Assembly: GCA_964583985.1 (NCBI GenBank)
Contig: CAZOYD010000020.1
Span: 1-50,628, forward strand
Direction: 5' to 3'
DNA from: an uncultured archaeon
Lineage (GTDB): Archaea > Asgardarchaeota > Lokiarchaeia > Sigyniarchaeales > SOKP01
Length of the DNA: 50,628 nt
The translations under genes and the position numbers were made by a program. Numbering within the stretch: the stretch's first letter is position 1; each line of letters starts with the position of its first letter. Below are positions 18,740-50,543 of the stretch, one piece after another. Under the pieces are notes generated by a model. That model searched no databases and was not told the origin of the DNA. It saw only the letters and a list, made by a program, of their open reading frames with translations.

Positions 18740-18779
18740 GCAGAATATTCAAATTATAATTATACAAATTTAAATTAAC

Positions 18780-18790
18780 TTTTTTTGTTT
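18780..18790 (+). terminator. Oligo-T tract, possible archaeal terminator after aclA
   Basis: TTTTTTTGTTT about 40 bp downstream of the stop codon. Confidence 0.3.
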
Positions 18791-18883
18791 AATTTATAGA
18801 AATAATAAATTTTAAGAAATCTAAACAATTAAAAACAAAAGCAAATTAAAGAAAAAATAAAAATGAAAGAGAGGAAATAAAAC

Positions 18884-20095
18884 ATGGAAGATGTAGTACA
18901 AAAAGCAAAAGACCACTTTGGAGGTTTAGTAAGGGCTCAATTAAAAAGAATTGAAGATTTAAAGAAAGGAGCAGATTGGATAGATTATTCTAAATTGAAC
19001 CCACTCATCATAGGAGTAGCTGGCGGAGACTATATCGGTCCAGAAATTACAAAACATGCCGAAAATATTTTGAAATTTCTTTTAAAAGAAGAAGTAGAAA
19101 ACGGTAAAATTCAATTCAAAGACATCGTAGGATTAACCATAGCAAACCGAGCTAAATTATTAAAAGCAATACCAGATGATGTCGTGAATGAGTTAAAGAA
19201 ATGTCACGTGATTCTCAAGGGGCCTACCCATACTCCATCCTCGGCCGATCTGACTTCAGGTAAATGGCCAAATTTAGAAAGCGCAAATGTGGCGATGCGA
19301 AGAGAGCTTGACTTATTTGCTAATGTTCGTCCTGTGAAAGTTCCCGAATTAGGCATTGATTGGATATTTTTTAGGGAGAACACAGAGGGTGCTTATGTAT
19401 TGGGTTCAAAGGGAATCAATGTAACAGAAGATTTAGCATTTGATTTTTGTGTCCATACCAAACAAGGTACTGATAGAATATTGAGATTAGCTTTTGAATA
19501 TGCTAAAAAAACTGGCCTGAACAGAGTATCTTTGATTACAAAAGCAAATGTTGTGAAAGCTACTGATGGAATGTACTTAAACATGGCGAAAAAGCTTGCA
19601 AAAGAAGAATATCCCGAAATTAAGTTCGATGATTGGTATATCGATATTATGGCAGCCAAATTAATCGATCCAGAACGTCAGAAAGAATTTAAGGTATTTG
19701 TGGCCCCTAACTTATATGGAGATATCATAACTGATGAAGCTGCACAAATTCAGGGATCAGTAGGAACTGCAGGAAGCGCAAATATTGGAAAACGCTATGC
19801 AATGTTTGAAGCTATCCACGGCACTGCTCCTAGAATGGTAGAAACGGGAAGAACTAAATACGCAGATCCGACTAGTATAATTAAGGCTTCCGCCATGCTC
19901 TTAAATCATATTGGATACATAAATAAAGCCAAAAAATTAGAAATGGCATTAGATGTCTGTGCATTATACGAGAAAAAGCTAAAAGTAACTGGGAGAGACA
20001 CGGGTGCTACGGGAGAAGAATTCGGTAAATATATAATGGAGACTCTGCAAAATCCAAACCTTGAAAAGAAATGGAAGAGTTATCAAAATGTATGA
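18884..20095 (+). CDS. icd: Isocitrate dehydrogenase (isocitrate/isopropylmalate dehydrogenase family)
   Basis: GDYIGPEI, LKGPTHTP, IDH-type SANVAMRRELDLFANVRP, RENTEGAY, PNLYGDI, FEAIHGTAP; adjacent to aclBA. Confidence 0.75.
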   Translation: MEDVVQKAKDHFGGLVRAQLKRIEDLKKGADWIDYSKLNPLIIGVAGGDYIGPEITKHAENILKFLLKEEVENGKIQFKDIVGLTIANRAKLLKAIPDDVVNELKKCHVILKGPTHTPSSADLTSGKWPNLESANVAMRRELDLFANVRPVKVPELGIDWIFFRENTEGAYVLGSKGINVTEDLAFDFCVHTKQGTDRILRLAFEYAKKTGLNRVSLITKANVVKATDGMYLNMAKKLAKEEYPEIKFDDWYIDIMAAKLIDPERQKEFKVFVAPNLYGDIITDEAAQIQGSVGTAGSANIGKRYAMFEAIHGTAPRMVETGRTKYADPTSIIKASAMLLNHIGYINKAKKLEMALDVCALYEKKLKVTGRDTGATGEEFGKYIMETLQNPNLEKKWKSYQNV

Positions 20096-35504: not shown

Positions 35505-37877
35505 ATGATATCTTTAGAAGATGCTGGAAAAGGATTAGATCCGAATCAAGTTTTAGAAAGATTAAAAAAGTATGGTTATAACGAGATTTCTTCTGAAAAA
35601 CCAAACCCAATGATATTAATTTTAAAAAAATTCTGGGGATTTACTCCTCTCATGCTTCTTATTACAATAATATTAGAGATAATTATAGGTAAAATCTTTG
35701 AAGCATATGTCATTACTGCTCTACTTCTATTCAATTCATTAATGTCTTATTTTCAAGAAAGAAAAGCAAATTTGGTATTAGAATTATTAAAAAGCAAATT
35801 GCAAGTAAAAGCTAGGGTTAAACGCCAAGGAGAGTGGACTCTGATTCCAGCAAGAGAGCTTGTTCCCGATGATCTTGTGAGGTTAAGATCTGGTGATTTT
35901 GTACCTGCAGACATAATTATTCTTGAAGGTTATATTGAAGTTGATCAATCATCTATTACTGGAGAATCAATTATAATTGAAAAAGAGTACAACCAATTGA
36001 TATATGCGGGATCAATCGTAAAAAGGGGTGAAGCTACTGGAAGAATAAAGGCAACAGCTAGTCATTCTTTTCTTGGACATACTATTCAATTAGTTGAACT
36101 TGCGAAACCTAAATTTAATATTCAGATAATGATATCAAAAATTGTTAAATGGCTAATTTTAATGGTTGTTTTTTCAATAAGTACAGCAATTATTTTCTCA
36201 ATTATCAAGAAGTTAAACCTTCTCGACTTAATACCTTTATTTGTTATTCTATTAATTGCTTCAATACCAATTGCTTTACCTACTATGTTTACTATTAGTA
36301 TGGCTTTAGGATCTTTTGAATTATCCAAAAAAAACGTATTAATAACCAGATTAGATGCTGTGGAAGATGTTGCTATGATGGACGTAATATGTGCAGATAA
36401 AACTGGAACCCTCACTATGAATGTACTCCAAATCTCAAAACTTATTAATAATTCGAAATATGAGGAAGATGATATTATTCTTTATGGCGCATTAGCATCT
36501 CAAGAAGCAGATCAAGATCCAATCGATCTTGCATTTATTAGAGTAATGAAAGAAAAGAATTTGCATTATGATGATTATATTCAAAAAAAATTTCTACCTT
36601 TCGATCCGATGAATCGAAGAACAGAAGCATTAATCGAGAGAGATGCAGAAACATTTTTGATTGTTAAAGGGGCTATTAATATAATCTTCAATATGTGCAA
36701 CTTATCTCAAATCGTGAACTTTAAAGATATTCAGAACAAAATGAGTGTCCTTTCTGCCTCTGGTTATAGATTGATCGCAGTAGCATTTGGAAAAGATAAA
36801 AATAATTTAGATTTAGTAGGTGTCGCGGCTCTGTATGACCAAATTCGACCCGAAATTTATGAATTAATTCAAAAAGTTAATGATTTGGGAATATCTTTAA
36901 AAATGTTAACTGGGGATGCTTTACCGATTGCAAAAGAAGTTGCAAAGAATGTGGGCATAGGAAATAACGTTATTAGTTATTCAGATTTTAAGGATCTTGT
37001 TAAGGAAAATGATGATTTTAAAATTTTAGAGAATATTGATGGGTTTGCTGAAATTTACCCTGAAGATAAATATTTAATTGTGAAAGATCTTCAGAAATTA
37101 GGACACGTTGTAGGAATGACAGGTGATGGAGTGAATGATGCTCCAGCTCTAAGGCAATCAGAAGTGGGTATAGCTGTAAAAAGTTCTACGGATGTAGCTA
37201 AAAAGGCATCTAGTGTTGTCTTAACTGAGGAGACTCTTGAAGGAATTATTGATTTGATAAAAATAGGAAGGAGAATCTATCAAAGAATAAACATTTGGAT
37301 TTTAAACAAGATAATAAGAACATTTAAAAGAGTTTTATTTATAATTCTTGCTTTTATGATTTTTAGTGTCTATATTGTATCCGCTTTAAATATGATAATT
37401 CTATTATTTTTGAGTGATTATGTAACTTTATCTTTATCTACTGATCAAGTTTCTTATTCTCAGAAACCTGAAAGTGGAAAAATAAATAAGCTAATTAAAG
37501 TTGGAATTATTTTAGGATTTTTTATAGTTCTTGAAGGACTTATAATTCTAATCATAGGAGACGCTTTTTTTAGAATATTTAATGATTTAAATCACGTTTA
37601 TACCTATACATTTGTTTTTTTAGTTTATTCGGGATATTTTACAATATTAGCAGTAAGAGAAAAAGAGCATTTTTGGCATTCAAAACCAAGTAAATTTTTA
37701 GCGATTGCAATTATTATTAATTCATTTTTCGTATTTTTAATAAGTACTTACGGATTAATTGGTTTTACTCCAATTCCTATTATTGAATTTATGGTTATTT
37801 TATTTTTTTGTTTTTTTTCGTGTTTAATTTTTAATGATTTTATAAAATGGATGTTAATAAAAAAATTTAAAGAATAA
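35505..37877 (+). CDS. P-type ATPase, P3A (plasma-membrane H+-ATPase-like)
   Basis: YGYNEI, TGES, TM4 IPIALP, DKTGT, DPID, FDP, KGA, MLTGD, MTGDGVNDAPAL, TM6 Asp in LFLSDYVT. Confidence 0.88.
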   Translation: MISLEDAGKGLDPNQVLERLKKYGYNEISSEKPNPMILILKKFWGFTPLMLLITIILEIIIGKIFEAYVITALLLFNSLMSYFQERKANLVLELLKSKLQVKARVKRQGEWTLIPARELVPDDLVRLRSGDFVPADIIILEGYIEVDQSSITGESIIIEKEYNQLIYAGSIVKRGEATGRIKATASHSFLGHTIQLVELAKPKFNIQIMISKIVKWLILMVVFSISTAIIFSIIKKLNLLDLIPLFVILLIASIPIALPTMFTISMALGSFELSKKNVLITRLDAVEDVAMMDVICADKTGTLTMNVLQISKLINNSKYEEDDIILYGALASQEADQDPIDLAFIRVMKEKNLHYDDYIQKKFLPFDPMNRRTEALIERDAETFLIVKGAINIIFNMCNLSQIVNFKDIQNKMSVLSASGYRLIAVAFGKDKNNLDLVGVAALYDQIRPEIYELIQKVNDLGISLKMLTGDALPIAKEVAKNVGIGNNVISYSDFKDLVKENDDFKILENIDGFAEIYPEDKYLIVKDLQKLGHVVGMTGDGVNDAPALRQSEVGIAVKSSTDVAKKASSVVLTEETLEGIIDLIKIGRRIYQRINIWILNKIIRTFKRVLFIILAFMIFSVYIVSALNMIILLFLSDYVTLSLSTDQVSYSQKPESGKINKLIKVGIILGFFIVLEGLIILIIGDAFFRIFNDLNHVYTYTFVFLVYSGYFTILAVREKEHFWHSKPSKFLAIAIIINSFFVFLISTYGLIGFTPIPIIEFMVILFFCFFSCLIFNDFIKWMLIKKFKE

Positions 37878-38216: not shown

Positions 38217-39557
38217 ATGATGTCAAGAAAGAAAGTGGTAATTATAGGGGCTCTTGGTATGGACTTTCATGTTTTTAACACGGTGTTTAAAGACAACGAG
38301 GAATATGAAGTCATTGCATTTACTATTGCTGGAGAACAAAATGTTGGAACAACTGAAGAAACCCAACGTAAATATCCGGCAGAATTAGCTGGCAAGCTTT
38401 ATCCAAAAGGTATTCCAATGCTTCCTGAAGAAAATCTGGCAGAAATAATAAAACTCCATCAAATAGATGAGGTTGTATTTGCGTATTCTGATGTATCACA
38501 TGAGGAAGTAATGCATAAAGCATCTCGAGCTCTTGCTGCGGGAGCAAATTATCGATTAATTTCAGGAAAGTTTACGCAAATAAAATCCAAAAAACCTGTA
38601 GTGGCTATTTGTGCTGTTAGAACAGGATGCGGTAAAAGTCAAGTTTCTAGGGCAACTTATCGGTATTTAATGAAAAAAGGTTTTAAAGTCGTAGCAATAA
38701 GAGAACCCATGCCATATGGAGACTTAGTTAAACAAAATGTGATGCGTTTTGAAGAATATGGAGATTTAGATAAGTATGATTGCACGATTGAAGAACGAGA
38801 GGAATACGAACCGTATCTCGAGCAAGGTCTCGTTATTTATTCAGGAGTGGACTATGAGAAAATAGTTAGACAAGCAGAAAAGGAAGCAGATGTTATAATT
38901 TTCGATGGGGGAAACAATGAAATATCATTTTATGTCCCAGATTTATTATTTATCGTCGTTGATCCATTAAGACCCGGACATGAAATGAAATACCATCCCG
39001 GAGAAGTGAATGCTCGATCGGCTGATGCATTTGTCATTAATAAGATGAATAGCGCCAATGCAGAAGATGTGAAGATAGTTGAAGCAAATTTAAATGAACT
39101 AAATCCTCTTGCAACTAAAATATATACCAATTCTGTCGTAACTATCGAAGGAAATCCCGATTTAAAGGATAAAAAGGTGATTGTTGTTGAGGACGGGCCA
39201 ACATTAACACACGGCTCAATGTCTTATGGAGCTGGATTTGTTGCAGCAACTAATAGTGGCGCTATTGTCATAGATCCTAAACCCTATATAACTGGCACAA
39301 TGAAAAAAGTATTCGAGGAATTTCCACAAATTACACAAATAGTCCCAGCAATGGGATATAACGACCAACAAATTAAAGACATGGAAGATACTCTAAATAA
39401 AGCAGATTGTGAAATAATAATTGATGGTAGTCCTATAGATCTTGGAAAATTAATCAAAAGCAATAAACCTATTATTAGAGTCACATATGATATTGAACCT
39501 GTAAAAAGTCCTACGATTGAGGAAACCTTAGACACATTTATTGAAAAATTTTTATAA
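38217..39557 (+). CDS. arcE: Arginine synthetase-like P-loop protein (COG2403 / cyclic-2,3-DPG-synthetase-like family)
   Basis: YPAELAGKLYPKGIP, FAYSDVSH, P-loop AVRTGCGKS, PMPYGDL, CTIEEREEYEP, DGGNN, VEDGPTLTHG, PAMGY; clustered with OTC, carbamate kinase and ornithine aminotransferase. Confidence 0.72.
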   Translation: MMSRKKVVIIGALGMDFHVFNTVFKDNEEYEVIAFTIAGEQNVGTTEETQRKYPAELAGKLYPKGIPMLPEENLAEIIKLHQIDEVVFAYSDVSHEEVMHKASRALAAGANYRLISGKFTQIKSKKPVVAICAVRTGCGKSQVSRATYRYLMKKGFKVVAIREPMPYGDLVKQNVMRFEEYGDLDKYDCTIEEREEYEPYLEQGLVIYSGVDYEKIVRQAEKEADVIIFDGGNNEISFYVPDLLFIVVDPLRPGHEMKYHPGEVNARSADAFVINKMNSANAEDVKIVEANLNELNPLATKIYTNSVVTIEGNPDLKDKKVIVVEDGPTLTHGSMSYGAGFVAATNSGAIVIDPKPYITGTMKKVFEEFPQITQIVPAMGYNDQQIKDMEDTLNKADCEIIIDGSPIDLGKLIKSNKPIIRVTYDIEPVKSPTIEETLDTFIEKFL

Positions 39558-39651
39558 AAATTATATATTAAATTTTAATACGTAAAAAGGACATACATCG
39601 AAAACTCCTTTTTCCATTCATTATTTATTTTTTCAGAAGGTGAAAAATAAA

Positions 39652-41835
39652 TTGATATTAGCAGAAAAAAAGTTTGAAATTCGTGAGGTCCAAAAAGGAT
39701 ATGCTAATAGAACTCTTTACATTGATCTTACTAATAACATCATCCAGATCAAGTTAGTCACAAATGAAATGAAAGAAAAGTTTATTGGAGGCAAAGGATT
39801 TAATCTTTGGCTAATGTGGAATGGACTTCCTCAAGAGAGAATTGTGAAATGGGACGATCCCGAAAATGAAATTTGCATTTCTTCTGGACCTTTAGGAGGG
39901 AGTATATTTTACCCGGGTTCAGGAAAATCAATAGTTACCACAATATCTCCCTTAACGGATATTATCATTGATTCAAATGTTGGCGGCTATTTCGGACCAT
40001 ATTTAAAATTCTCCGGTTTTGATGCAATTGAAATTCAAGGTAAAGCAAAAGAAGAGGTTCTAATATACATCGATGGTATTGAGGGGATTGTTCAAATAAA
40101 AAAAGTCGAAAAATCTGATAAGTTATCTAAATATTCTCATGAATTAACTCAGCAACTTACTGAACAATATGCCCAAGACGATCGCGAAAAGCAAAGAATT
40201 TCTGTAGTGAGCACTGGTCCTGCAGCAAAACATTCGAATTGGGGAATGCTAAACTTTTCATGGTACGTTCCAGGGCGTAAATGGGCTTCAAGTAAACAAG
40301 CCGGGAGAGGTGGGATTGGAACCGTTTTTGCTGATAAAAAAATCAAGGCATTAGTCTGTCGTTCTCCAAAAGTTTCCATTAATTCAAATAATCCTGCTAA
40401 TTTAGAAGAAGCTAGAAAAATTGGAATCGCGCATACCCAAGAAATCATTAAACTTGACCCCATACAGAATGAAATGCGGCGAGTGGGAACAGGGCATCTT
40501 CCCGATATCATGAATGTGACTGATCTGCTACCTACCGAAAATTACCGATTTGGTGCTCATCGGGAAATTCGTGGAAAAGAGATCCCTTATAATAGAGAGA
40601 TTATGAGAGGAATTTATTCTGGAAAAGAAGGTGGTGATGGATGTTGGATAGGATGTGCTGTTTCATGTTCTCATTATTCAGAAGGACACGAAGTCTTAAC
40701 TGGACCTTTCAAGGGAAAAAAAGTAATCGTTGATGGACCAGAATATGAAACCATAGCGGGTTGTGGTTCAAATTGGGGCGTGTGGGACCCAAAATGGGTC
40801 TTAGAAGTAAATTTTTACTGCGATACGTATGGTTTAGATACAATATCGGTAGGGACGGGAATAGCATTTGTAATGGAATGCTTCGAAGCGGGAATCTTGA
40901 ATAAAAAAAGGACTGGAGATTTAGAATTAGAGTTTGGAAATGTAGAATCAGCGGTTGAGTTAATTCATCAAATGGCTAAAGGTGAAAGCTTTGGAGTTAT
41001 AGTTGGAAAAGGAATTAAATATATGAAAAAATATTTTGCTGAAAATTTTGGAGCAGATCCACAGTTTCTGCAAGATATAGGCATGGAACATAAAGGCTTA
41101 GAATTCTCTGAGTATGTAACCAAAGAATCCTTGGCGCAACAAGGTGGATATGGGTTAACTAATAAAGGACCGCAGCACGACGAAGCATGGTTAATTTTTG
41201 ACGACATTATTAGAAATTCCATTCCAACATTCGAGGATAAAGCTAAAGCTTTGAGATATTTCCCATTATGGCGAACATGGTTTAGCTTATGTGGTTTATG
41301 CAAGTTACCATGGAATGATATCCAACCAACGAGTCAAGCAGATTACCCTATTAAAGATCCCAAGACCGGAGAACTAGTTCGAGCGAAAATTCCTGATCAT
41401 GTTGAGAATTATGTTAAATACTACTCAGCAGTCTCGGGAAATCAATCGACATCAGACGATCTCATAAGAATGTCTGAAAGAGTGTATACATTTCAAAGGA
41501 TATTCAATATTAGATTAGGTAAAGGACTACGAGAGCACGATTCAAATCTACCTTATAGAGCAATAGGACCAGTTACATCCCTTGAATTCGAAAGTCGCGC
41601 AGAGAGGTATGATACACAGCTTAAAGAATTAGGAGTCAATATTAATAATAAAACTACGCAAGAAAAAATGAAAATCCTTAGGGAACATCGAGAGCAACAA
41701 TATGGAAAACTTCAAGATGCGGTATATTTAGAACGCAATTGGAGTAAAAAGGGTTGTCCTACCATGGATTTGGTAAGAAAATTGGGAATTGATTTTGATG
41801 ATATAGTGGAAATTATTTCTCCTTTTCAAGAATAA
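39652..41835 (+). CDS. Tungsten-dependent aldehyde:ferredoxin oxidoreductase family protein
   Basis: FIGGKG, ISPLT...DSNVGG, QAGRGGIG, CWIGCAVSC, DGPEYET, DTYGLDTIS, GLCKL. Start probably TTG 39652, since the GTG at 39640 lies within an AAGGTGA SD-like site. Confidence 0.9.
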   Translation: MILAEKKFEIREVQKGYANRTLYIDLTNNIIQIKLVTNEMKEKFIGGKGFNLWLMWNGLPQERIVKWDDPENEICISSGPLGGSIFYPGSGKSIVTTISPLTDIIIDSNVGGYFGPYLKFSGFDAIEIQGKAKEEVLIYIDGIEGIVQIKKVEKSDKLSKYSHELTQQLTEQYAQDDREKQRISVVSTGPAAKHSNWGMLNFSWYVPGRKWASSKQAGRGGIGTVFADKKIKALVCRSPKVSINSNNPANLEEARKIGIAHTQEIIKLDPIQNEMRRVGTGHLPDIMNVTDLLPTENYRFGAHREIRGKEIPYNREIMRGIYSGKEGGDGCWIGCAVSCSHYSEGHEVLTGPFKGKKVIVDGPEYETIAGCGSNWGVWDPKWVLEVNFYCDTYGLDTISVGTGIAFVMECFEAGILNKKRTGDLELEFGNVESAVELIHQMAKGESFGVIVGKGIKYMKKYFAENFGADPQFLQDIGMEHKGLEFSEYVTKESLAQQGGYGLTNKGPQHDEAWLIFDDIIRNSIPTFEDKAKALRYFPLWRTWFSLCGLCKLPWNDIQPTSQADYPIKDPKTGELVRAKIPDHVENYVKYYSAVSGNQSTSDDLIRMSERVYTFQRIFNIRLGKGLREHDSNLPYRAIGPVTSLEFESRAERYDTQLKELGVNINNKTTQEKMKILREHREQQYGKLQDAVYLERNWSKKGCPTMDLVRKLGIDFDDIVEIISPFQE

Positions 41836-41859
41836 TAATGAATCAGAAAGTGATCCTAA

Positions 41860-43941
41860 ATGGAAAACATTACTAAACATCCCATTCTTGAAATTCCTGA
41901 AAGAAAAAAAATAAAATTCAAATTCGATGAGAAAGAATTAATCGGATTTGAAGGATTGGTAATATCCTCTGCCTTATTTCTTAATAGTATTAAAATTTTT
42001 GGTCATCACGTAAAAGATTCAAGCCCTCAAGGTATTTTTTGTGCTAATGGTCAATGTTCTCAATGTAATGTTATCGCCGATGGCATTCCCGTGAAAGCTT
42101 GCATGACCCCTTTAAAGGATGGAATGGAAATTAGAAGTTGTAACGGCTTACCCGAATTACCGATTGATGACGAACCAGTTGATGTTAGCGATGCTGATAT
42201 TATTACGACAAGTGTTCTTATTATAGGTGCCGGTCCAGCAGGATTGTCTGCTGCCACAATCTTTGGAGAGCATGAAATAGATGTCATTTTAATTGATGAT
42301 AAGGATAGACTTGGTGGTAAATTAGTACTTCAAACGCACAAATTTTTTGGTTCTCAAAAAGATGTATATGCTGGTAAGCGAGGCATTGATATAGCACGGA
42401 TCCTAGGTGACCAAATAAAATCATTGGATATCGTAAAAACTTGGATTAATAGCACCTGTTTAGCCGTATTTAGTGATAAGCTGGTGGGTGTTTTGAAGAA
42501 TAATGAAGAATACGTATTAATCTCACCAAAATATTTATTAATTGCAACGGGAGCAAGAGAAAAGATGCTTGCATTTCCAGGAAACACTCTCCCAGGTGTG
42601 TATGGCGCAGGTGCATTTCAAACATTAGTCAATCGTGATTTAATAAAAGCTGCAGAACGAATTTTCATTGTTGGAGGAGGCAACGTTGGTTTAATTACGG
42701 GTTATCATGCCATTCAAGCAGGAATCCAAGTGATCGGATTAATTGAAGCAATGCCGTCGTGTGGAGGATATAAAGTACATGAAGACAAACTTCGCCGATT
42801 GGGTGTCCCAATATATACAAGTCATACAATTTTAAGTGCCAACGGGACTAATAATGTTGAATCAATAACTATTGGACAAATTAATGAAAACGGGGAAAGT
42901 CTCCCAAATACCACAAAAACCTTTAGATGTGATACCATTTTAATAGCTGTAGGGTTAAATCCAGTAGATGAGTTTTATCATAAGGCAAAAGAATTTGGAA
43001 TGAGAGTGTGGGTTGCTGGAGACGCTCAAGAAATTGCTGAAGCCTCAGCTGCTATTTTTACTGGAAGAATTGAAGCTCTAAAGATCTTGGAAAAAATGGG
43101 GATCGAATTTGAAGAAGATATTGATGATTTGGAAAACTTAGCTGCTATCATGAAAGCAAAACCTCCAGAACCCATTACTCTAAATATAACAGAAAAAACA
43201 GAAGGTATTTTTCCTCTCTTTCATTGTAATCAAGAAATACCGTGTAATCCCTGTACGTCTGTATGTCCTCAAGATCAAATTAAAACTTATGATAATATTA
43301 TTACAAATCTTCCATACTTCAAAGATGAAAAAGATTGTATCGGATGTGGTAAATGTATTGCAGTTTGTCCCGGATTGGCGGTCATTTTAATAGATTTTAG
43401 AAAAAGTAAAGAATTTCCTTCTGTTACATTCCCTCTTGAACTCTCAGCTAATAAAGTTGAGAAAGGAATAAAAGTTTCGGTTGTTGGTAATGATATGGAA
43501 TTTGGAAAATTCGAAGTTAAACGAGCACGTATTTTACCAGAATTTCCTAAAACACAACTCATTACTGTTGAATTACCATTAAAAATTGCGAAAGAAGCTA
43601 CAGGCATTAGATTAAATGAAAGTTCTTATAATGAAGCTCTTGATATATATCAGAAGGGATTTACAGACAATGAAACAATTGTCTGTCGTTGTGAGCGAAT
43701 TTCCGTAGGAGAAATTCGTCATTGGATACGGAATGGTATAAGAGATTTTAATGAATTGAAAGCATTAACGAAAGTTGGGATGGGGTCTTGCGGAGGAAAA
43801 ACCTGTACTCCATTAATTAATAGAATTTTCCGTGAGGAAGGTGTTGCTATTGAAGATATCATTCCCGGAACAAAGCGTCCCTTGTATATTGAAATACCAA
43901 TGAAAATATTTGCGGGTATAAAGGATAAAAAAGAGGATTAA
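41860..43941 (+). CDS. Proline dehydrogenase/sarcosine oxidase alpha-like flavoprotein with 2Fe-2S, 2x4Fe-4S and BFD-like 2Fe-2S domains
   Basis: CANGQCSQC...C; IGAGPAG; ATGARE; VGGGNVG; CNQEIPCNPCTSVCP; CIGCGKCIAVCP; CRCE...GMGSCGGKTC...RP. Confidence 0.85.
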   Translation: MENITKHPILEIPERKKIKFKFDEKELIGFEGLVISSALFLNSIKIFGHHVKDSSPQGIFCANGQCSQCNVIADGIPVKACMTPLKDGMEIRSCNGLPELPIDDEPVDVSDADIITTSVLIIGAGPAGLSAATIFGEHEIDVILIDDKDRLGGKLVLQTHKFFGSQKDVYAGKRGIDIARILGDQIKSLDIVKTWINSTCLAVFSDKLVGVLKNNEEYVLISPKYLLIATGAREKMLAFPGNTLPGVYGAGAFQTLVNRDLIKAAERIFIVGGGNVGLITGYHAIQAGIQVIGLIEAMPSCGGYKVHEDKLRRLGVPIYTSHTILSANGTNNVESITIGQINENGESLPNTTKTFRCDTILIAVGLNPVDEFYHKAKEFGMRVWVAGDAQEIAEASAAIFTGRIEALKILEKMGIEFEEDIDDLENLAAIMKAKPPEPITLNITEKTEGIFPLFHCNQEIPCNPCTSVCPQDQIKTYDNIITNLPYFKDEKDCIGCGKCIAVCPGLAVILIDFRKSKEFPSVTFPLELSANKVEKGIKVSVVGNDMEFGKFEVKRARILPEFPKTQLITVELPLKIAKEATGIRLNESSYNEALDIYQKGFTDNETIVCRCERISVGEIRHWIRNGIRDFNELKALTKVGMGSCGGKTCTPLINRIFREEGVAIEDIIPGTKRPLYIEIPMKIFAGIKDKKED

Positions 43942-43945
43942 TTTA

Positions 43946-45112
43946 ATGGTGGACTATGATGTGATAATCATTGGTGCTGGAAGCGTTGGAGTTCCAACAG
44001 CATTAGCGTGTGCTAGTGATGGATTGAACACATTAGTGATTGATTCTCTACCCTCAGTATCCCAAGCAGATAATAAACATGCTATTGGAGGCATAAGAGC
44101 AACTCATACTCAAAAAGGAAAAATATGGTTATGCCAGAGATCGATCGAAATTTTTAAGAATTGGGAACAAAATTTCGGAGATGATATTTGGTGGAGCCAA
44201 GGAGGGTATTGTTTTGTAGCTTATTCAAAAGAACATCAGAAGATGTTAAAATCCAACATTGAATTACAAAAATCGTATGGTTTGGACATAAATTATATTA
44301 ACAAAGAGGATATCAGAAGTTTAATTCCTGGAATTAATGAAGATAACTTATTGGGGGGAACATACAGCCCTGAAGATGGTAATGCATCTCCTCTACTTTC
44401 TCTTCATGCTTTTTATCGCCAATCTAAAAATTTTCAAGCAGAATATAGATTTAATGAAACTGTTACCGGCATAATCACTAAAAATGGAATTATAACGGGA
44501 TTAAAAACCAATAAAAATAAATATAATACGACGCATATAGTTAATGCAGCGGGTGGATATGCTAATATAATAGGAAAAATGATGAACATTGACCTACCAG
44601 TAATTCCAGAATCTCATGAAGCAGGTATTACCGAGCCCGTAAAAAAATTTTTCAATCCCATGGTCGTTGATATTCGACCTGCTAAAGATGAAGTTTTTGG
44701 AAATTCTTCAAATTATTATTTTTACCAAAATAAAGAGGGTAAAATCATTTTCTGCCTTACTCCTCAACCAAGTATTATTGGGACAGATAGAAGAGAAACA
44801 AGTTCCTTCCTCCCTCAAATTACTAAAAGAATGATTTCATTAATGCCCAGATTGAAAAATATAAAAATCCGTAGAACGTGGAGAGGTCTTTATCCCATGA
44901 CTCCTGATGGAAATCCTATCCTGGGGAGAGTAGAAGGTGCTAATGGCTATATAAATGCGGTAGGGATGTCCGGGCAAGGATTCATGCTGGGTCCCGGCAT
45001 CGGTGAACTTATGAGTAGACTTATACGAACCAAATTAACACTAAAAGATAAAGAAATTCTTAAAGATTTCTCCTTCACAAGGGATTATAATAAGGAAGAG
45101 GATTTAAAGTAA
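43946..45112 (+). CDS. DAO-family FAD oxidoreductase (proline dehydrogenase/sarcosine oxidase beta-like)
   Basis: IGAGSVG, VNAAGG, WRGLYPMTPDGNPILG, GMSGQGFMLGP. Confidence 0.85.
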   Translation: MVDYDVIIIGAGSVGVPTALACASDGLNTLVIDSLPSVSQADNKHAIGGIRATHTQKGKIWLCQRSIEIFKNWEQNFGDDIWWSQGGYCFVAYSKEHQKMLKSNIELQKSYGLDINYINKEDIRSLIPGINEDNLLGGTYSPEDGNASPLLSLHAFYRQSKNFQAEYRFNETVTGIITKNGIITGLKTNKNKYNTTHIVNAAGGYANIIGKMMNIDLPVIPESHEAGITEPVKKFFNPMVVDIRPAKDEVFGNSSNYYFYQNKEGKIIFCLTPQPSIIGTDRRETSSFLPQITKRMISLMPRLKNIKIRRTWRGLYPMTPDGNPILGRVEGANGYINAVGMSGQGFMLGPGIGELMSRLIRTKLTLKDKEILKDFSFTRDYNKEEDLK

Positions 45113-45188
45113 AAATTTAAAGAAAGCTTCATATAATTATCAAAATATGGAGAAAAAAAGTCAATTATAACACTTTAAGTGAATAAAA

Positions 45189-46121
45189 ATGGTTAGACAT
45201 TTATTAAAAATATCAGATTTTTCAAAAGAGGAATGTGAAAAGATCATTTCTAAAGCTGTAGAGATTAAAAATAATCCTGCAAAATTCAAAGCCGCATTAA
45301 AAGGAGAGACACTTTTGATGTTATTCGAAAAACCTTCCTTAAGAACAAGAATTTCTTTCGAGACGGGGATGCAACAATTAGGTGGACATGCTATATTTTA
45401 TTCTATAGTAGATTCTCCTTTAGGGAAAAAGGAAAACATTCACGATACTGCTAAGGTGGTATCATTATACGTGAATTTAATTGCAGCAAGGGTATACAAG
45501 CGAGAAGATATGCGGAACTTTGCTAAAGATTCTACCGTTCCATTAATCAATATGCTTGATGATTTCGCTCATCCGTGTCAGATTCTTTGTGACTTCCTTA
45601 CGATCAAAGAAAAAAAGGGACAGCTTAATAATTTAAAAGTATCCTTTTTCGGAGATGGATACAATAATGTAACTTATGATCTTATGCGAATGTGTGCAAT
45701 GTTTGGATTGAGGATGGATGTTGCATGCCCAAGCGGAACTGATTATTCCCCAGAACAAGAAGTACTAAATGAAGTAAAAGAGTTGTCAAAAATTTCAGGT
45801 GCTGATGTTAGAGTAATCCACAATGCTAAAGAAGCAGCTAAAGATGCGGACATAGTCTATACAGACTCGTGGATGTCATATGGGATTCCTAAGGAGCTAG
45901 AAGAAGAACGTAAAAAAATATTTATGCCATACCAAGTGACCGAAGAAATAATGAAACTTGCTAAATCGGATGCTCTTTTCATGAACTGTCTCCCCGCGAT
46001 GAGAGGTCATGAACAAACGGCAGCAGTTATAGATGGTCCTCAATCAATTGTTTTCGATCAAGCGAGAAATCGACTTCATGGCCAAAAAGCTATAATGTTA
46101 TTTCTAAGGGATAAATTCTAA
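45189..46121 (+). CDS. arcB: Ornithine carbamoyltransferase (probably catabolic)
   Basis: KPSLRTR, HPCQ, GDGYNNV, YTDSWMSYG, FMNCLP, DQARNRLH. Confidence 0.9.
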   Translation: MVRHLLKISDFSKEECEKIISKAVEIKNNPAKFKAALKGETLLMLFEKPSLRTRISFETGMQQLGGHAIFYSIVDSPLGKKENIHDTAKVVSLYVNLIAARVYKREDMRNFAKDSTVPLINMLDDFAHPCQILCDFLTIKEKKGQLNNLKVSFFGDGYNNVTYDLMRMCAMFGLRMDVACPSGTDYSPEQEVLNEVKELSKISGADVRVIHNAKEAAKDADIVYTDSWMSYGIPKELEEERKKIFMPYQVTEEIMKLAKSDALFMNCLPAMRGHEQTAAVIDGPQSIVFDQARNRLHGQKAIMLFLRDKF

Positions 46122-46282
46122 CTCCTTTATCTTAATTTTATAATCTAAAAATCCTGGAAATCAAAAGAAAGAGCGCAAATTCTTTAAAGAAAGATTCTAA
46201 ATTTTGATAGCTCTTATAATAAAATTTATAATTTTCCTTACAATACTATTATTTTTCACTTTGAGATTGGAGTTGACAATAC

Positions 46283-47221
46283 TTGAAAACATTAATCATC
46301 GCACTTGGTGGGAATGCTCTTATAAAGCCCGGAGAAAGGGGTACCACTGAAGAAATGATTAATAATTTACGTGCTCCTATTAAACAAATTGCAAAATTAT
46401 CAAAAGATTATAACATCGTTATCACTCATGGAAATGGTCCACAAGTAGGAAATCTTTTATTACAACAAGAAGCTACTGAAACTGTTTCAAAAAGACCTCT
46501 ACAAATATTGGTAGCGGAGACTCAAGGTCAAATTGGATATTTAATTGAATCTACTTTAGATGAAGAATTAATGAAATTAAACATAGATCAAGAGAAATTT
46601 TTCTTGACGGTGCTAACCTACGTTAAAGTTGATCCAAATGATCCTGCCTTCAAACACCCAACAAAACCAATTGGACCAGCATATAAGAGAAAAAAAGCAG
46701 GTTATGTGAAAACTTCTAAGGGTTGGCGCCGTGTAGTTGCTTCTCCTAAACCAATTAAAATTTATCAATGGCGTGAAATAAAAAAATTGATGGCACTAGG
46801 AGATTTTATTCTCATTGCTTGTGGGGGTGGGGGTGTTCCAGTTATTAAGGATGAAAAAAGATTATACGGCGTTGAGGCGGTAATTGATAAGGATCTTGCA
46901 AGTGCGAAATTAGGAGAACAAATTGGAGCTCAAATTCTTTTAATTGCATCTGATGTTGAAAAAGTTGCACTAAATTATGGTCGAATAGACTATAAATACT
47001 TGGATCTTATTTCCACTGATGAAGCTCAAAAATACATGAGAGAAGGTCACTTTCCTGCAGGTTCTATGGGTCCAAAAGTGCAAGCGGCGATAAATTTTTT
47101 AGATTCCGGAGGAGAACGCGCCATCATCACGTCTATAGAAAAAATAAAAGATGCAATAGAAGGAAATGCTGGTACTCAATTTTTTTTAGAAAAAAATGAT
47201 AGTAATTCAACCGAAAATTAA
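46283..47221 (+). CDS. arcC: Carbamate kinase
   Basis: ALGGNAL, THGNGPQVG, PTKPIG, WRRVVASP, GGGGVPV, EAVIDKD, GSMGPK. Confidence 0.95.
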   Translation: MKTLIIALGGNALIKPGERGTTEEMINNLRAPIKQIAKLSKDYNIVITHGNGPQVGNLLLQQEATETVSKRPLQILVAETQGQIGYLIESTLDEELMKLNIDQEKFFLTVLTYVKVDPNDPAFKHPTKPIGPAYKRKKAGYVKTSKGWRRVVASPKPIKIYQWREIKKLMALGDFILIACGGGGVPVIKDEKRLYGVEAVIDKDLASAKLGEQIGAQILLIASDVEKVALNYGRIDYKYLDLISTDEAQKYMREGHFPAGSMGPKVQAAINFLDSGGERAIITSIEKIKDAIEGNAGTQFFLEKNDSNSTEN

Positions 47222-47317
47222 TTAATCATTTTTACGTTAAAATGTCGAGAAAATCTAAGGGCAAACTTGAAGAAAAAAAAGTAAAAATGATATTCTGATG
47301 ATATGAGAAGAATTCTT

Positions 47318-47632
47318 TTATTGTGAAGTATCCTCATGGCTAATTCTAGTGCCCTTGAGAGGTGCTTTACCAAGAGGACTCTTCACCGTGCCCGATATGG
47401 TGTCACCATCAATTTTAGCATTGAATTCAAAAGTCAAGAATCGTGGAAAATTTCTTGAAGCCTTCCATATCAATGTAGTACCGTCAAATTTTACGTCCTT
47501 GATCTCGTTGGTATTCTTACCATGATCCATTCTACCAGTGACCGTATTACCTGCAAAGGAGAGGTACAATGTGGCTTTTTGAGTATTGAAAGGGTTCTTC
47601 ATCTCTAAATTCCATATTTCATTAAAAGACAT
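47318..47632 (-). CDS. Small hypothetical beta-rich protein
   Basis: 104 aa with alternating beta-strand pattern (W..EMKNP..., IDGDTISGTVKSPLG); visibly more GC-rich than its flanks. Confidence 0.65.
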   Translation of the reverse strand: MSFNEIWNLEMKNPFNTQKATLYLSFAGNTVTGRMDHGKNTNEIKDVKFDGTTLIWKASRNFPRFLTFEFNAKIDGDTISGTVKSPLGKAPLKGTRISHEDTSQ

Positions 47633-47763
47633 AATTAATCGCTTTAATAAGGGACTTCTACTTTATAATAATTTGCCTTAATTTTAATTAATGTAAAAAA
47701 GCGCCCTCAATAACCTAAAATCCTTTTTAAAAAATTATTTTGAAATAAAAAGTTATTATAAAT

Positions 47764-49023
47764 TTATTTGATTAGGACTTTTTCTATTATATTTAAAGCC
47801 CAATCGATTTCCTCTTTCGTAATTATTAAAGGAGGGGCAAATCTAATAGTCTTAGAATGAGTATGTTTAGCGAGTACTCCATTGTCCTTTAATAATTCGA
47901 CGATATGTCTTGCATCTGACTCAAATTCGACTGCCATTAAGAGTCCTTTGCCTCTAACTTCTTTTACTGGAAGGATAGTTTCCTTTTTTGCAATATTTTT
48001 AAGCCCTTCTAAGAAATACGCCCCCAATTCTTTGGCTCTTTGAGCTAAATGATCTTCAATGTGAAGTTCTATCGATTTCATAGCAACCGCACTAGCTAGA
48101 GGGTTCCCACCAAATGTTGATCCATGTGTGCCAGGCTTAATAACGTCAGGACCAATTATATCTCTAGTTGTGACCACCGCGGAAACAGGATATACGCCTC
48201 CTCCAAGTGCTTTTCCAAGTAACATCGCATCTGGCTTCACATTATCGTGGTCACATCCAAAAAATTCCCCAGTTCTTCCAAAACCAGTTTGGATCTCGTC
48301 AGCGATCATCAGAACATTGTATTTTGTACATATCTCTCTAACCTTTTTAACGTAGCCTTCAGGAGGTATTTTTATACCCGCTTCTCCCTGAATTGGTTCA
48401 AATAAAAACGCGGCTACTTTGTCAGCATCGATTTCTAAAATTGTATTTTCTAATTTTTCAGCATCTCCATATGGAATTATCACAAAACCGGGTGTATAAG
48501 GTCCGAAGTTCCCATAGTATCTTACAGCTGCAATATCCGTACTAAATCCTACTATTGCTATTGATCTTCCATGAAAATTATCTCGGCATACAATAATTTT
48601 GGCTTCGTTTTTAGGAATCTTCTTCTTGATATAACCCCACGCTCTGGCAACTTTTAATCCAGTAGAAACTGCTTCAGTTCCCGTGTTCATAGGCAACGCC
48701 ATTATTCCGGAATTATTTGGATCATTGATATGTTGCCCAACAACTTCACACAATTTTTTTACAAATGGTCCCATCTTATCGTTGTAGAATGCACGAGAAG
48801 TTAAAGCAACCGTATCTACTTGTTCTTTTAAAACTTTTATAATTTCTGGGTGACTATGCCCCAAATTTATGGCAGAATAAGCTGATAGACAATCAATATA
48901 CTTCTTCCCTTCGGGATCATAAACCCAGACACCTTTAGCTCTGCTAATAACAACGGGTATCGGGTGATAATTATGAGCACAGTATTTATCATCCATTTCC
49001 ATATAATCTTTTGAATTCAGCAT
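47764..49023 (-). CDS. rocD: Ornithine--oxo-acid aminotransferase (class III PLP enzyme)
   Basis: AHNYHPIPVV, DCLSAYSA, LTSRAF, PMNTGTEA, EPIQGEAG, DEIQTG, PLP Lys in LGKALGGG, HGSTFGGNPL. Confidence 0.92.
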   Translation of the reverse strand: MLNSKDYMEMDDKYCAHNYHPIPVVISRAKGVWVYDPEGKKYIDCLSAYSAINLGHSHPEIIKVLKEQVDTVALTSRAFYNDKMGPFVKKLCEVVGQHINDPNNSGIMALPMNTGTEAVSTGLKVARAWGYIKKKIPKNEAKIIVCRDNFHGRSIAIVGFSTDIAAVRYYGNFGPYTPGFVIIPYGDAEKLENTILEIDADKVAAFLFEPIQGEAGIKIPPEGYVKKVREICTKYNVLMIADEIQTGFGRTGEFFGCDHDNVKPDAMLLGKALGGGVYPVSAVVTTRDIIGPDVIKPGTHGSTFGGNPLASAVAMKSIELHIEDHLAQRAKELGAYFLEGLKNIAKKETILPVKEVRGKGLLMAVEFESDARHIVELLKDNGVLAKHTHSKTIRFAPPLIITKEEIDWALNIIEKVLIK

Positions 49024-49223
49024 GTGATTTCATATGTTTTTATTTATAAGGTTTTTAATAAGTATCTAAATTTATCTATACATCAAAATATATTAATGTT
49101 GGTTCAGAAAATCAATTGGGAATGCTGTGGGATTACTGAATTTAATATTATAATAAATTTTAAGATAAACTATTCAAATAATTAATAATTCAATATAATT
49201 TAATTAAGAAGATTGACGTGTAA

Positions 49224-50543
49224 ATGAAGTTAACCAATAAGTACATCTTCAATTTAATCATTGCAAATTTACTTTGGAGTCTTATTCCCATTGTTGTAAC
49301 GGGATTATTTGATGGAATTTCAATAATCACAATTATAATTCTTAGGTTTCTTACTTCGGGAATCATTTTATTTGTCATCGCTATTCTCATAGCATTTGTG
49401 AACAATCATTTTAATAAAGACGAAAAAATTCCCTTAAAAGACTATTTCTTGAATTTAAGGCACAAAAATAGGAGATTTTATGATATACGTACTTATAATT
49501 ACTATTTTCTCATTGGATTCTTCGGTATTATCTTACATATCATCTTTTTCTTTCTTGCTCTGAAAACAACCTCTATTCCTTTTACAATGATTGGTGCCTT
49601 ATTAACAATAATTTTTATAGTTTTTTATGAAAAAGGAGTAAATTACGAGAAGTTTGACATCTTTCGAATCCTTTTCATCTTAATGTTATCATTTGCCGTA
49701 ATAATTATTATTTCAGTATCTTTTAGGGGAGCACAATTAAATGGAAAACCAATTGAACCGATGGGAATGATTTATTTGATTTTATATTCAATTACAGGGT
49801 CATTTTTATATATAAGCATCGAAAGAGATTCTTACTCAAAAAATGAGTTAAGAAATATTAATAAAACTAAATATTATAAAATTCCACGCGCACTTATAAA
49901 ATTATCAATATCTTTCATATCAGGAGTGATAATTATGATTCCCGTTTTATTTTTATTTTTATTCATACCATTTGAAACTGACTTCACTCAAGAAACGGTT
50001 CACTTCTTTAAGGATCTTCTCTCGCTAAATTCCATTCTTTTCCGATGGGAAATTTTATATTTGATAATATTTGCTACGATTATACCTTATTTATTAATTT
50101 TTTTGGCTAATGTTAACTGGAAAACTACGAGCTTGACGTACAGCCAATGGAATAGCATATTAGGTTTAATCGAACCGACCAGTACCATAATTTTCGCAGT
50201 TCTATTATCAAATGCATATTTTCCACATGAATATCTAATAATTGTCATAATTTTTCTTGTCATAGCCGTTGTTTTAAGATATGCACATGAAGTTAGGAAT
50301 GTTATAAATGCTTATATCTTACTTAAGATCCAAAAAAGATCTTTATCCATACTACCAATCAAAATATTGAAATTTTATGGGATCAAGGAAATTTATTCAT
50401 TAATAGGTGAGTTTGATTTAATGGTGAAAGTTCAAGTAAATTCATTTAAAGACTTTCATTATTTAATAAATAGAAAATTAAAACCTTTAGATGAGATTTT
50501 GGAAGTGGAAGTACAATTTGTCAGTAAAAAAGAAAAGTTTTAG
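49224..50543 (+). CDS. EamA/DMT-family transporter fused to a C-terminal Lrp/AsnC ligand-binding (RAM) domain
   Basis: ANLLWSLIP, ILRFL, ALKTTS, ATIIPYLL, LIEP (EamA, about 10 TM). From residue ~360: AYILLKI...GIKEIYSLIGEFDLMVKV...LDEI (RAM). Confidence 0.78.
   Translation: MKLTNKYIFNLIIANLLWSLIPIVVTGLFDGISIITIIILRFLTSGIILFVIAILIAFVNNHFNKDEKIPLKDYFLNLRHKNRRFYDIRTYNYYFLIGFFGIILHIIFFFLALKTTSIPFTMIGALLTIIFIVFYEKGVNYEKFDIFRILFILMLSFAVIIIISVSFRGAQLNGKPIEPMGMIYLILYSITGSFLYISIERDSYSKNELRNINKTKYYKIPRALIKLSISFISGVIIMIPVLFLFLFIPFETDFTQETVHFFKDLLSLNSILFRWEILYLIIFATIIPYLLIFLANVNWKTTSLTYSQWNSILGLIEPTSTIIFAVLLSNAYFPHEYLIIVIIFLVIAVVLRYAHEVRNVINAYILLKIQKRSLSILPIKILKFYGIKEIYSLIGEFDLMVKVQVNSFKDFHYLINRKLKPLDEILEVEVQFVSKKEKF

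Follow-up and report, generated by a model that had tools for sequence, protein, structure and literature searches.

A long tungsten-type aldehyde oxidoreductase inside a probable arginine synthetase gene cluster of Lokiarchaeia, and its possible role in glutamate semialdehyde oxidation

What does a tungsten-type aldehyde oxidoreductase do inside a gene cluster for arginine breakdown? The question is raised by a contig of 50,628 nucleotides (CAZOYD010000020.1, assembly GCA_964583985.1) from an uncultured Asgard archaeon of the class Lokiarchaeia; the window analyzed here is this whole contig, which belongs to a 3.8-Mb assembly scored as 100% complete with 5.25% contamination. Six co-oriented forward-strand genes, separated in order by gaps of 82, 24, 4, 76, and 161 bp, encode a putative arginine synthetase of the ArcE family (38217..39557), a long-form, tungsten-type large subunit of the aldehyde oxidoreductase/tungsten-containing oxidoreductase family (AOR/WOR; 39640..41835), a PdhA-like iron-sulfur flavoprotein (41860..43941), a PdhB-like FAD dehydrogenase (43946..45112), ornithine carbamoyltransferase (OTC, ArcB/ArgF; 45189..46121), and carbamate kinase (CK, ArcC; 46283..47221), and an ornithine--oxo-acid aminotransferase (OAT, RocD; 47764..49023) lies convergent to this operon on the reverse strand. 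ORF calling and family scans bear out the gene list and coordinates given by an earlier, sequence-only reading of the same DNA, in which the AOR was taken for a glutamate-semialdehyde:ferredoxin oxidoreductase. We tentatively interpret the cluster as a conserved catabolic module of Loki-type Asgard archaea leading from arginine, ornithine, and proline to glutamate, a proposal to which we give slightly less than an even chance, and we regard glutamate-5-semialdehyde (GSA) as a plausible, if short of probable, physiological substrate of the cluster AOR.

What the locus and its relatives present directly is the identity, order, and conservation of the genes, an intact AOR catalytic apparatus, and a recurrent linkage of this AOR to proline, ornithine, and glutamate enzymes in unrelated lineages. 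From these we infer the ArcE reaction, the substrates of PdhAB and of the AOR, the electron acceptor, and the direction of flux. ArcE would convert arginine, ADP, and phosphate to citrulline, ammonia, and ATP, OTC would phosphorolyze citrulline to ornithine and carbamoyl phosphate, and CK would draw a second ATP from the latter. OAT would then turn ornithine into GSA, in equilibrium with Δ1-pyrroline-5-carboxylate (P5C), while PdhAB would deliver proline to the same GSA/P5C pool. The AOR would oxidize GSA to glutamate and pass low-potential electrons to ferredoxin or flavodoxin, replacing the NAD-dependent P5C dehydrogenase (P5CDH) that the genome lacks, and glutamate would finally be deaminated to 2-oxoglutarate by the copies of glutamate dehydrogenase (GDH).

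The cluster AOR (731 aa, GTG start) carries both the AFOR_N (PF02730, 7.6e-47) and AFOR_C (PF01314, 4.5e-86) domains, and its best matches among PDB entries are the Pyrococcus furiosus AOR (PfAOR; 3.8e-48, 167 bits) and formaldehyde:ferredoxin oxidoreductase (FOR; PfFOR, 1B25; 5.2e-42, 147 bits). Its [4Fe-4S] ligands C335, C339, C343, and C554 align with C288, C291, C295, and C494 of PfAOR, and T284, E370, Y492, and H513 correspond to Thr243, Glu313, Tyr427, and His448, the conserved second-shell catalytic residues of that enzyme (PMC12096430); both sets are invariant in 87 members of the clade. The catalytic histidine lies within a GPQHDEAW motif similar to the HHKEAW of PfFOR, and Trp517 stands in place of PfAOR Tyr452, as it does in PfFOR. 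Charged residues D514, E515, K495, E496, and K509, close to H513 and Y492, are clade-invariant as well. The protein is predicted to hold a tungsten cofactor and to oxidize an aldehyde. At about 730 aa, members of the clade exceed classical AORs by about 110 residues, and insertions at positions 208-216, 558-581, 647-668, and 679-687 set them apart from the paralogues as clade-specific features. A complex prediction for the AOR with PdhA residues 440-693, the Fe-S/BFD part, scored zero, a result that speaks neither for nor against binding.

PfFOR gives the proposed substrate a precedent of sorts: it binds glutarate in crystals and has long been proposed to oxidize C4-C6 semialdehydes arising from basic amino acid catabolism (PMC12096430, PMC2432063). 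The cluster AOR does not fall within the PfFOR clade, being weaker in its match to 1B25 than to PfAOR, long-branched, and apart from the 13 other AOR-family proteins of its own genome, to none of which it is more than 27% identical. Members of its clade may act in the role proposed for FOR, yet they are not FORs. Maximum-likelihood analysis separates the clade from the paralogues of the window's genome by a branch of 4.6 substitutions; branches within the clade are short. Such a complement, fourteen AOR/WOR genes in a 3.8-Mb Asgard genome, points to a heavy reliance on tungsten/molybdopterin aldehyde chemistry. A 2026 classification of WORs assigns a defined physiological role to only 5 of 92 clades and mentions neither proline, nor arginine as a substrate, nor semialdehydes (PMC13328260), and our literature search turned up no paper connecting a tungsten oxidoreductase with P5C/GSA or with operons for proline dehydrogenase, nor any description of the cluster in Asgard papers. 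The earlier statement that no characterized AOR is known to have such a role agrees with this search, but has to be tempered by the long-standing proposal for PfFOR.

The main support for GSA as the substrate comes from the neighborhoods of the AOR clade, in which linkage to GSA/P5C-making and glutamate-consuming enzymes recurs in varied arrangements. We called, clustered, and annotated the genes around 80 AOR loci found in a scan of species-representative genomes, where AOR identity is 68-84% in Asgard loci and 53-58% in Chloroflexota, Bacteroidota, Bacillota, Cloacimonadota, Calditrichota, and others. The full order ArcE-AOR-PdhA-PdhB-OTC(-CK)(-OAT) is confined to the eight nearest Asgard loci, with OAT in the same position at L006, L010, and L021. 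Ten Clostridia/Calditrichota loci combine a sigma54 activator, a split PdhA (Fer2_4; Pyr_redox_2; 4Fe-4S+BFD), PdhB, the small polyferredoxin WorS, and the AOR, and an eleventh, truncated bacterial locus (L072) retains PdhB-WorS-AOR; cultured carriers of this operon include Wukongibacter baidiensis and Clostridium thermobutyricum. Among loci with complete flanks, that is, at least four genes on each side of the AOR, 9 of the 27 bacterial loci and 5 of the 9 Asgard ones have a PdhB-type neighbor, and AOR-PdhAB adjacency is seen in Asgard family f1, in genus g11 of family f2, and, independently and with a different gene order, in Clostridia/Calditrichota (family and genus labels here and below are our own).

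Other neighbors extend the same theme toward glutamate. A Thermoanaerobacteraceae locus (L054) reads Pdh-AOR-GDH-KorABG, the last being a 2-oxoacid:ferredoxin oxidoreductase (KOR), and two Desulfosporosinus loci bring together GDH, the AOR, KorABG, and an ArgD-type (ornithine-type) aminotransferase, to which one of them (L074) adds an amino-acid ABC transporter, a DAO-family enzyme, and an OCD-family gene. Anaerolineae loci read WorS-AOR-prolidase-like-cyclophilin-like; over all loci, prolidase-like M24 genes occur in seven, SNF-family transporters in three, and prolyl-tRNA synthetase (ProRS) in two, some of them beside the Clostridia/Calditrichota operon, and in three related loci a flavodoxin gene precedes the AOR. 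A creatinase reading of the M24 neighbors was set aside, their best NCBIfam match being the Xaa-Pro dipeptidase PepQ, albeit below cut-off, and creatinase neighbors were not specifically searched; a hydroxyproline pathway was likewise set aside, with no epimerase among the annotated recurrent neighbors and deaminase genes not specifically searched. The neighborhood test suggested with the sequence-only reading is thus positive in part: PdhAB-type genes adjoin the AOR in Asgard archaea and in Clostridia/Calditrichota, and GDH, KOR, ArgD-type, or prolidase-like genes do so in other bacteria, but the link to arcE, arcB, and arcC is limited to part of one Asgard lineage.

In the maximum-likelihood tree the main Asgard AOR sequences form a monophyletic group that branches from within bacteria, beside Anaerolineae, and a second, small Asgard lineage (L023 and L098, the latter at G209:C1:2707132-2709264; genus g10 of f2) lies inside a Clostridia subclade and keeps a bacterial-type WorS together with ThiS. 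Because of this nesting and the retained WorS, the second lineage suggests a separate bacterium-to-archaeon transfer.

The PdhAB pair is the candidate source of proline-derived GSA/P5C. PdhA (693 aa) fuses Fer2_4, Pyr_redox_2, 4Fe-4S dicluster, and BFD/SO_alpha_A3-like modules that in bacteria are three to four separate genes, and its N-terminal part matches sarcosine oxidase alpha and 1Y56_A. PdhB (388 aa; DAO, 6.6e-58), a single-copy protein in this genome and the candidate catalytic subunit of a dye-linked L-proline dehydrogenase (L-ProDH), has its best PDB match in 1Y56_B, the beta subunit of the Pyrococcus horikoshii enzyme (3.9e-56), with sarcosine oxidase beta and dimethylglycine dehydrogenase at 1e-21 and no other solved homologue stronger. 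The likeness to a proline dehydrogenase that had been noted from the sequence is supported as a resemblance to the archaeal L-ProDH complex, and among solved structures the AOR-linked DAO enzymes of Asgard archaea, Wukongibacter, and Desulfosporosinus are all nearest 1Y56_B by wide margins. Relatives of PdhB that lack solved structures include D-hydroxyproline (D-Hyp) dehydrogenase, opine dehydrogenase, and HCN synthase (PMC4575208). By gene context in relatives, with prolidase-like, ProRS, and Pro_dh neighbors, PdhAB is a candidate for specificity toward L-proline. In Asgard families f7, f20, and f24 PdhAB is accompanied, at a distance of no more than a few kb, by a PutA-type proline dehydrogenase (Pro_dh, PF01619; L099 in G258, L100 in G026, L101 in G074; G025:C47), and in G258 this Pro_dh is followed by a class-II aminoacyl-tRNA synthetase-like gene, an arginase-family gene, and a class-V aminotransferase. 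The Pro_dh and arginase-family neighbors tie PdhAB to proline and arginine metabolism.

The arginine synthetase pathway is the best-founded part of the module. The ArcE-like protein (446 aa, with a P-loop and a Walker A-like RTGCGKS motif) has no Pfam, NCBIfam, or PDB sequence match, and its homologues carry names such as "predicted GTPase" or "cyclic 2,3-diphosphoglycerate synthase" (cDPGS). The GTPase and cDPGS labels are misannotations of arcE homologues described by Michimori et al., who list Thermoflexus, Bipolaricaulis, and Lokiarchaeota as arcE carriers and place arcE sometimes beside arcB/arcC (PMC11032458). In agreement with that list, Thermoflexus, Thermoflexia, and Bipolaricaulota genomes each hold one full-length homologue at 49-53% identity; more distant homologues in Thermoproteota and metagenomes (39-42% identity) had no OTC or CK neighbors and are uninformative. 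The ArcE-like protein is the sole member of its family in the genome, and arcE adjoins the rest of the cluster in about 7-8 related loci. The assignment is well supported by family membership and context, and by the same membership the protein is predicted to catalyze Arg + ADP + Pi <-> Cit + NH3 + ATP. OTC (TIGR00658, 364.4 bits, cut-off 280.85) is the genome's only one, its next match being 27% identical, and CK is likewise single-copy, passing TIGR00746 by a narrow margin (360.6 bits, cut-off 358.25). OAT is clearly assigned (TIGR01885, 524 bits, cut-off 378.4). With a single-copy ArcE-family gene beside the only OTC and the only CK, no arginine deiminase (ADI) found in the genome search, and a gene order shared by eight loci, the arginine synthetase interpretation holds.

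Neither an ADI (arcA) nor a PutA-type proline dehydrogenase nor a RocA was found in the genome search. No Aldedh gene lies in the window, and among the whole-genome Aldedh matches none is ProA-type; two generic aldehyde dehydrogenases (ALDHs) on contigs C65 and C80, in unrelated neighborhoods, reach 303 and 175 bits against the P5CDH model NF002852, whose cut-off is 648. The claimed absences therefore stand for arcA and for a P5CDH-grade ALDH, in window and genome alike, but proC, also said to be missing from the window, exists elsewhere (C19), as do an OCD-family gene (C70) and a carbamoyl-phosphate synthetase (CPS). GDH is represented by four full-length genes along with weaker matches.

A phyletic survey of 300 sampled genomes of the Asgard phylum yields results on both sides. 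The AOR clade is single-copy in 165 of them and limited to six families; PdhB is found in 80, OAT in 101, and PutA-type Pro_dh in 25. All 16 sampled AOR carriers of the window's genus have PdhB, as do 14 of 15 in the sister genus; in at least 31 sampled genomes, every one from f1 or from genus g11 of f2, AOR and PdhB lie no more than 7 kb apart; and the three genes AOR, PdhB, and OAT are present or absent together in genera g1 and g2.

Several observations weigh against GSA as the substrate. In families f7, f24, and f29 and in genus g10 of f2, both the AOR and PdhAB exist but are unlinked, separated by 0.09-1.2 Mb on complete chromosomes or carried by different contigs. Of 76 genomes of family f9, 60 carry the AOR, yet searches of all 76 turned up no PdhB, OAT, or Pro_dh, and searches of 41 turned up neither proA nor proC; in the window's own family, genera g3 and g6 keep the AOR orthologue with no PdhB, OAT, or Pro_dh found. 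The orthologue must then have, in these lineages, a role that does not need GSA, and since the AOR is kept in many genomes that lack a GSA-forming enzyme, the clade as a whole is probably not limited to GSA. At four f9 loci (L085, L086, L090, and L091) the AOR is a few genes from modules resembling heterodisulfide reductase (Hdr), namely a 929-aa Pyr_redox_2/Fer4_20 flavoprotein, an HdrC-like Fer4 protein, and a CCG-domain HdrB-like protein; no proline, ornithine, or arginine genes are near the AOR there, and the neighbors give no hint of substrate. At three other f9 loci phosphoenolpyruvate carboxykinase (PEPCK) adjoins the AOR. The replacement argument is also weaker than it had seemed: the sequence-only reading placed the AOR in the position of RocA/PutA, which fits a genome without a P5CDH-grade ALDH, but RocA-type P5CDH was found in 0 of 300 genomes of the phylum, among them those of family f16 with OAT and Pro_dh but no AOR. 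Its absence from this genome therefore proves little, and there is no complementary distribution to support a nonorthologous replacement, so that the comparison does not discriminate. Furthermore, the generic ALDHs on C65 and C80 could still oxidize GSA; the presence of proC means that biosynthesis of proline from arginine through ornithine, as in Thermococcus kodakarensis, explains OAT without any AOR; a Pro_dh beside PdhAB in other Asgard genomes casts doubt on PdhAB being simply an L-proline dehydrogenase and raises the question why two such enzymes should be required; and with fourteen AOR genes in the genome, an AOR beside some cluster is less improbable than it seems.

The strongest alternative, which we hold to be possible and less probable than GSA oxidation, builds on these data: the AOR would have a role unrelated to GSA, acting on another aldehyde of anaerobic peptide fermenters or in redox balancing, and would be in the cluster of one Asgard lineage by co-regulation with amino-acid fermentation or by genomic accident. 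The cluster would then amount to the known arginine synthetase pathway with OAT and a proline dehydrogenase added, and P5C may serve only the interconversion of proline and ornithine. The f9, g3, and g6 orthologues without GSA/P5C enzymes, the separation from Pdh in f7, f24, f29, and g10, the Hdr-like and PEPCK neighbors in f9, and the size of the AOR complement all agree with it, and so does the fact that most bacterial loci, including those of Bacteroidales and Cloacimonadota, as well as other Asgard loci, have only cofactor-related neighbors (ThiF, ThiS, MoeA, MoaA, and a TOBE-domain ABC transporter). Against it stand the linkage to a ProDH-like enzyme, which arose more than once, with differing gene orders and in sigma54-regulated operons, the GDH/KOR/ArgD-type aminotransferase contexts, which are hard to square with a generic aldehyde, and the joint presence or absence of AOR, PdhB, and OAT in g1 and g2. 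The identification of the AOR as a glutamate-semialdehyde:ferredoxin oxidoreductase is supported in part: the recurrent linkage with proline, ornithine, and glutamate enzymes argues for it, but the lineages that keep the AOR without them argue for a wider or different function.

A second alternative, which we consider unlikely, reverses the flow. In an anabolic or two-way module the AOR would reduce glutamate to GSA with reduced ferredoxin in place of ProB/ProA and ArgBCD, OAT, OTC (with CPS or CK), and ArcE would make arginine, and ProC or PdhAB would make proline; or proline would be turned into arginine via PdhAB, OAT, OTC, and ArcE. The genome is compatible with such a scheme, having no argininosuccinate synthase (argG) above cut-off, no argC, and no ProA-type Aldedh match while encoding CPS, its only OTC, ArcE, OAT, and proC. 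For organisms that have ArcE, ArcB, and CPS while lacking ArgGH, Michimori et al. already considered this option (PMC11032458); no enzymes other than AORs are known to reduce nonactivated acids (PMC9295118); and the proline-arginine interconversion of Staphylococcus aureus offers a precedent. CK and a dye-linked dehydrogenase in the operon are, however, catabolic markers, and the bacterial contexts (transporters, prolidase, GDH, KOR, and sigma54 activators) are catabolic as well; acid reduction by ferredoxin would, from established redox potentials, be thermodynamically uphill; and family f9, in which the AOR is found and proC and OAT are not, would have no use for GSA in either direction.

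Least probable of all, and in our judgment quite unlikely, is that PdhAB acts on a secondary amine other than L-proline (an N-methyl amino acid or sarcosine, an arginine-yielding opine, or D-hydroxyproline) and that the AOR clears the released formaldehyde in the manner of FOR, or α-ketoglutarate semialdehyde: the folate-binding domain found in sarcosine oxidase alpha is missing from PdhA, so that demethylation would set formaldehyde free, HCN synthase and the dehydrogenases of opines and D-Hyp are members of the family (PMC4575208), the HDEAW of the AOR is similar to the HKEAW of PfFOR, a Pro_dh next to PdhAB elsewhere among Asgard archaea hints that PdhAB may use another substrate, and formaldehyde detoxification could account for AOR retention in f9. 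Against this, the match of PdhB and its bacterial counterparts to 1Y56_B is far stronger than that to sarcosine oxidase beta, Xaa-Pro dipeptidase is the top match of the M24 genes, no hydroxyproline epimerase is among the annotated recurrent neighbors (deaminase and creatinase genes were not specifically searched), and the ProRS, GDH, KOR, OAT, and ArgD contexts point to proline, ornithine, and glutamate.

GSA oxidation by the cluster AOR can be extended to a wider proposal, which we advance with more reserve and consider rather doubtful. The long AOR clade would constitute a ferredoxin-linked oxidoreductase of GSA, or of acidic omega-semialdehydes, that together with PdhAB would form a tungsten-dependent, anaerobic replacement of PutA in Archaea as well as Bacteria; the two-ATP arginine synthetase pathway of Asgard archaea would then continue to glutamate, with reduced ferredoxin supplied for H2/formate syntrophy. 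The NAD(P)-binding PdhA might confurcate the electrons released from GSA, which are of low potential, with the high-potential ones released from proline. Were the AOR's role as proposed, it would give a familiar enzyme family a new physiological function tied to an established pathway, and would add one more WOR clade with a defined role to the five of 92; it would explain how strict anaerobes without PutA or RocA oxidize P5C and would give Asgard archaea a route yielding two substrate-level ATP and reduced ferredoxin per arginine. An amino-acid-fermenting, H2-transferring lifestyle of Asgard archaea is central to models of eukaryote origin. It is also important to note that, as the f9 result warns, the function of the AOR clade is not readable from the arginine cluster alone.

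Further features surround the cluster. Divergent from rocD, a forward-strand gene (49224..50543) encodes an EamA-like membrane protein with a C-terminal AsnC/RAM ligand-binding domain (AsnC_trans_reg, 32.6 bits; EamA, 28.1 bits, slightly below the 28.2 cut-off), whose orthologue at L006 is 67% identical and in the same position. A 104-aa ORF between arcC and rocD (47318-47632, reverse strand) has no family match, is not seen there in L006 or L021, and is probably not a real gene. In L021, short OTC (81 aa) and PdhB (184 aa) fragments between pdhB and arcB (16276-17029) are apparent remnants of local duplication or rearrangement. A scan for sigma-70 promoters and terminators gave matches no commoner than in shuffled sequence, and the sigma-70 model does not apply to an archaeon. 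Directly 5' of arcE (35505-37877) lies a gene for a plasma-membrane-type (IIIA) proton-efflux P-type ATPase (TIGR01647, 659 bits, above cut-off), with three paralogues of 37-38% identity elsewhere in the genome. Some 18 kb upstream (15611-20095) are genes for ATP-citrate lyase (beta, 430 aa; alpha, 611 aa) and for an isocitrate/isopropylmalate dehydrogenase of 403 aa, a trio that with equal sizes likewise precedes the arc cluster in L021; it may offer a route for glutamate-derived 2-oxoglutarate to acetyl-CoA by reductive carboxylation. At 3620-7270 a 1216-aa fusion joins CheB methylesterase, CheR methyltransferase, PAS, and histidine-kinase ATPase domains. Around the AOR of the f7 loci L092-L094, Arf-like and Ras-like small GTPases, a ThiS-like gene, and an Ldh_2-family dehydrogenase recur.

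Set against known systems, the cluster combines familiar parts in an arrangement of its own. The arginine synthetase pathway and its occurrence in Lokiarchaeota (PMC11032458) are already known, as is the heteromeric archaeal L-ProDH cited in PMC4575208. Among the WORs, Class II enzymes pair WorL with a WorS polyferredoxin (PMC13328260), and bacterial members of the present clade have a gene for a polyferredoxin of about 138 aa and 4x[4Fe-4S] type immediately upstream of the AOR at 23 loci, whereas the main Asgard group, having no WorS, is Class I-like. PfFOR (1B25/1B4N) shares with the cluster AOR the single [4Fe-4S] cluster, the four second-shell residues, a similar His-x-Glu-Ala-Trp motif, and, as predicted for the latter, the tungsten-bis-pyranopterin, but is a distant relative (147 bits), the cluster AOR being about 110 residues longer, with clade-specific insertions; the physiological substrate of PfFOR is likewise unproven. 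We know of no report of PfFOR clustering with proline dehydrogenase or arginine genes.

The PutA/RocA route and the rocABC-rocDEF system of Bacillus subtilis have in common with the module the proposed chemistry from arginine through ornithine and GSA/P5C to glutamate and from proline through P5C to glutamate. They differ in that the Asgard cluster contains neither Pro_dh (PF01619) nor a P5CDH-grade ALDH, that its oxidation of GSA would be ferredoxin-linked and tungsten-dependent, and that arginine would be cleaved by ArcE rather than by the arginase of the roc route. With the dye-linked L-ProDHs of Thermococcales, such as P. horikoshii PDH1 (1Y56) and the alpha-beta-gamma-delta enzyme of Thermococcus profundus (Tsuge 2005 and Kawakami 2004, as cited in PMC4575208), PdhAB shares a DAO-family catalytic beta subunit, a Pyr_redox_2 alpha subunit, and the small Fe-S elements, but the Asgard protein joins its 2Fe-2S, flavoprotein, 4Fe-4S, and BFD modules in a single 693-aa chain, and the pair adjoins an AOR. 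A further parallel is the arginine synthetase pathway of T. kodakarensis (TK2200 with ArcB and ArcC), in which, as with the putative ArcE of the Asgard cluster, an ArcE-family P-loop protein occurs with OTC and CK in a genome without arginine deiminase, and OAT joins ornithine to GSA/P5C; there, ornithine is reported to go to proline, with no route to glutamate assigned (PMC11032458), whereas in the Asgard archaeon the genes form a single cluster with the AOR and PdhAB inserted between arcE and arcB.

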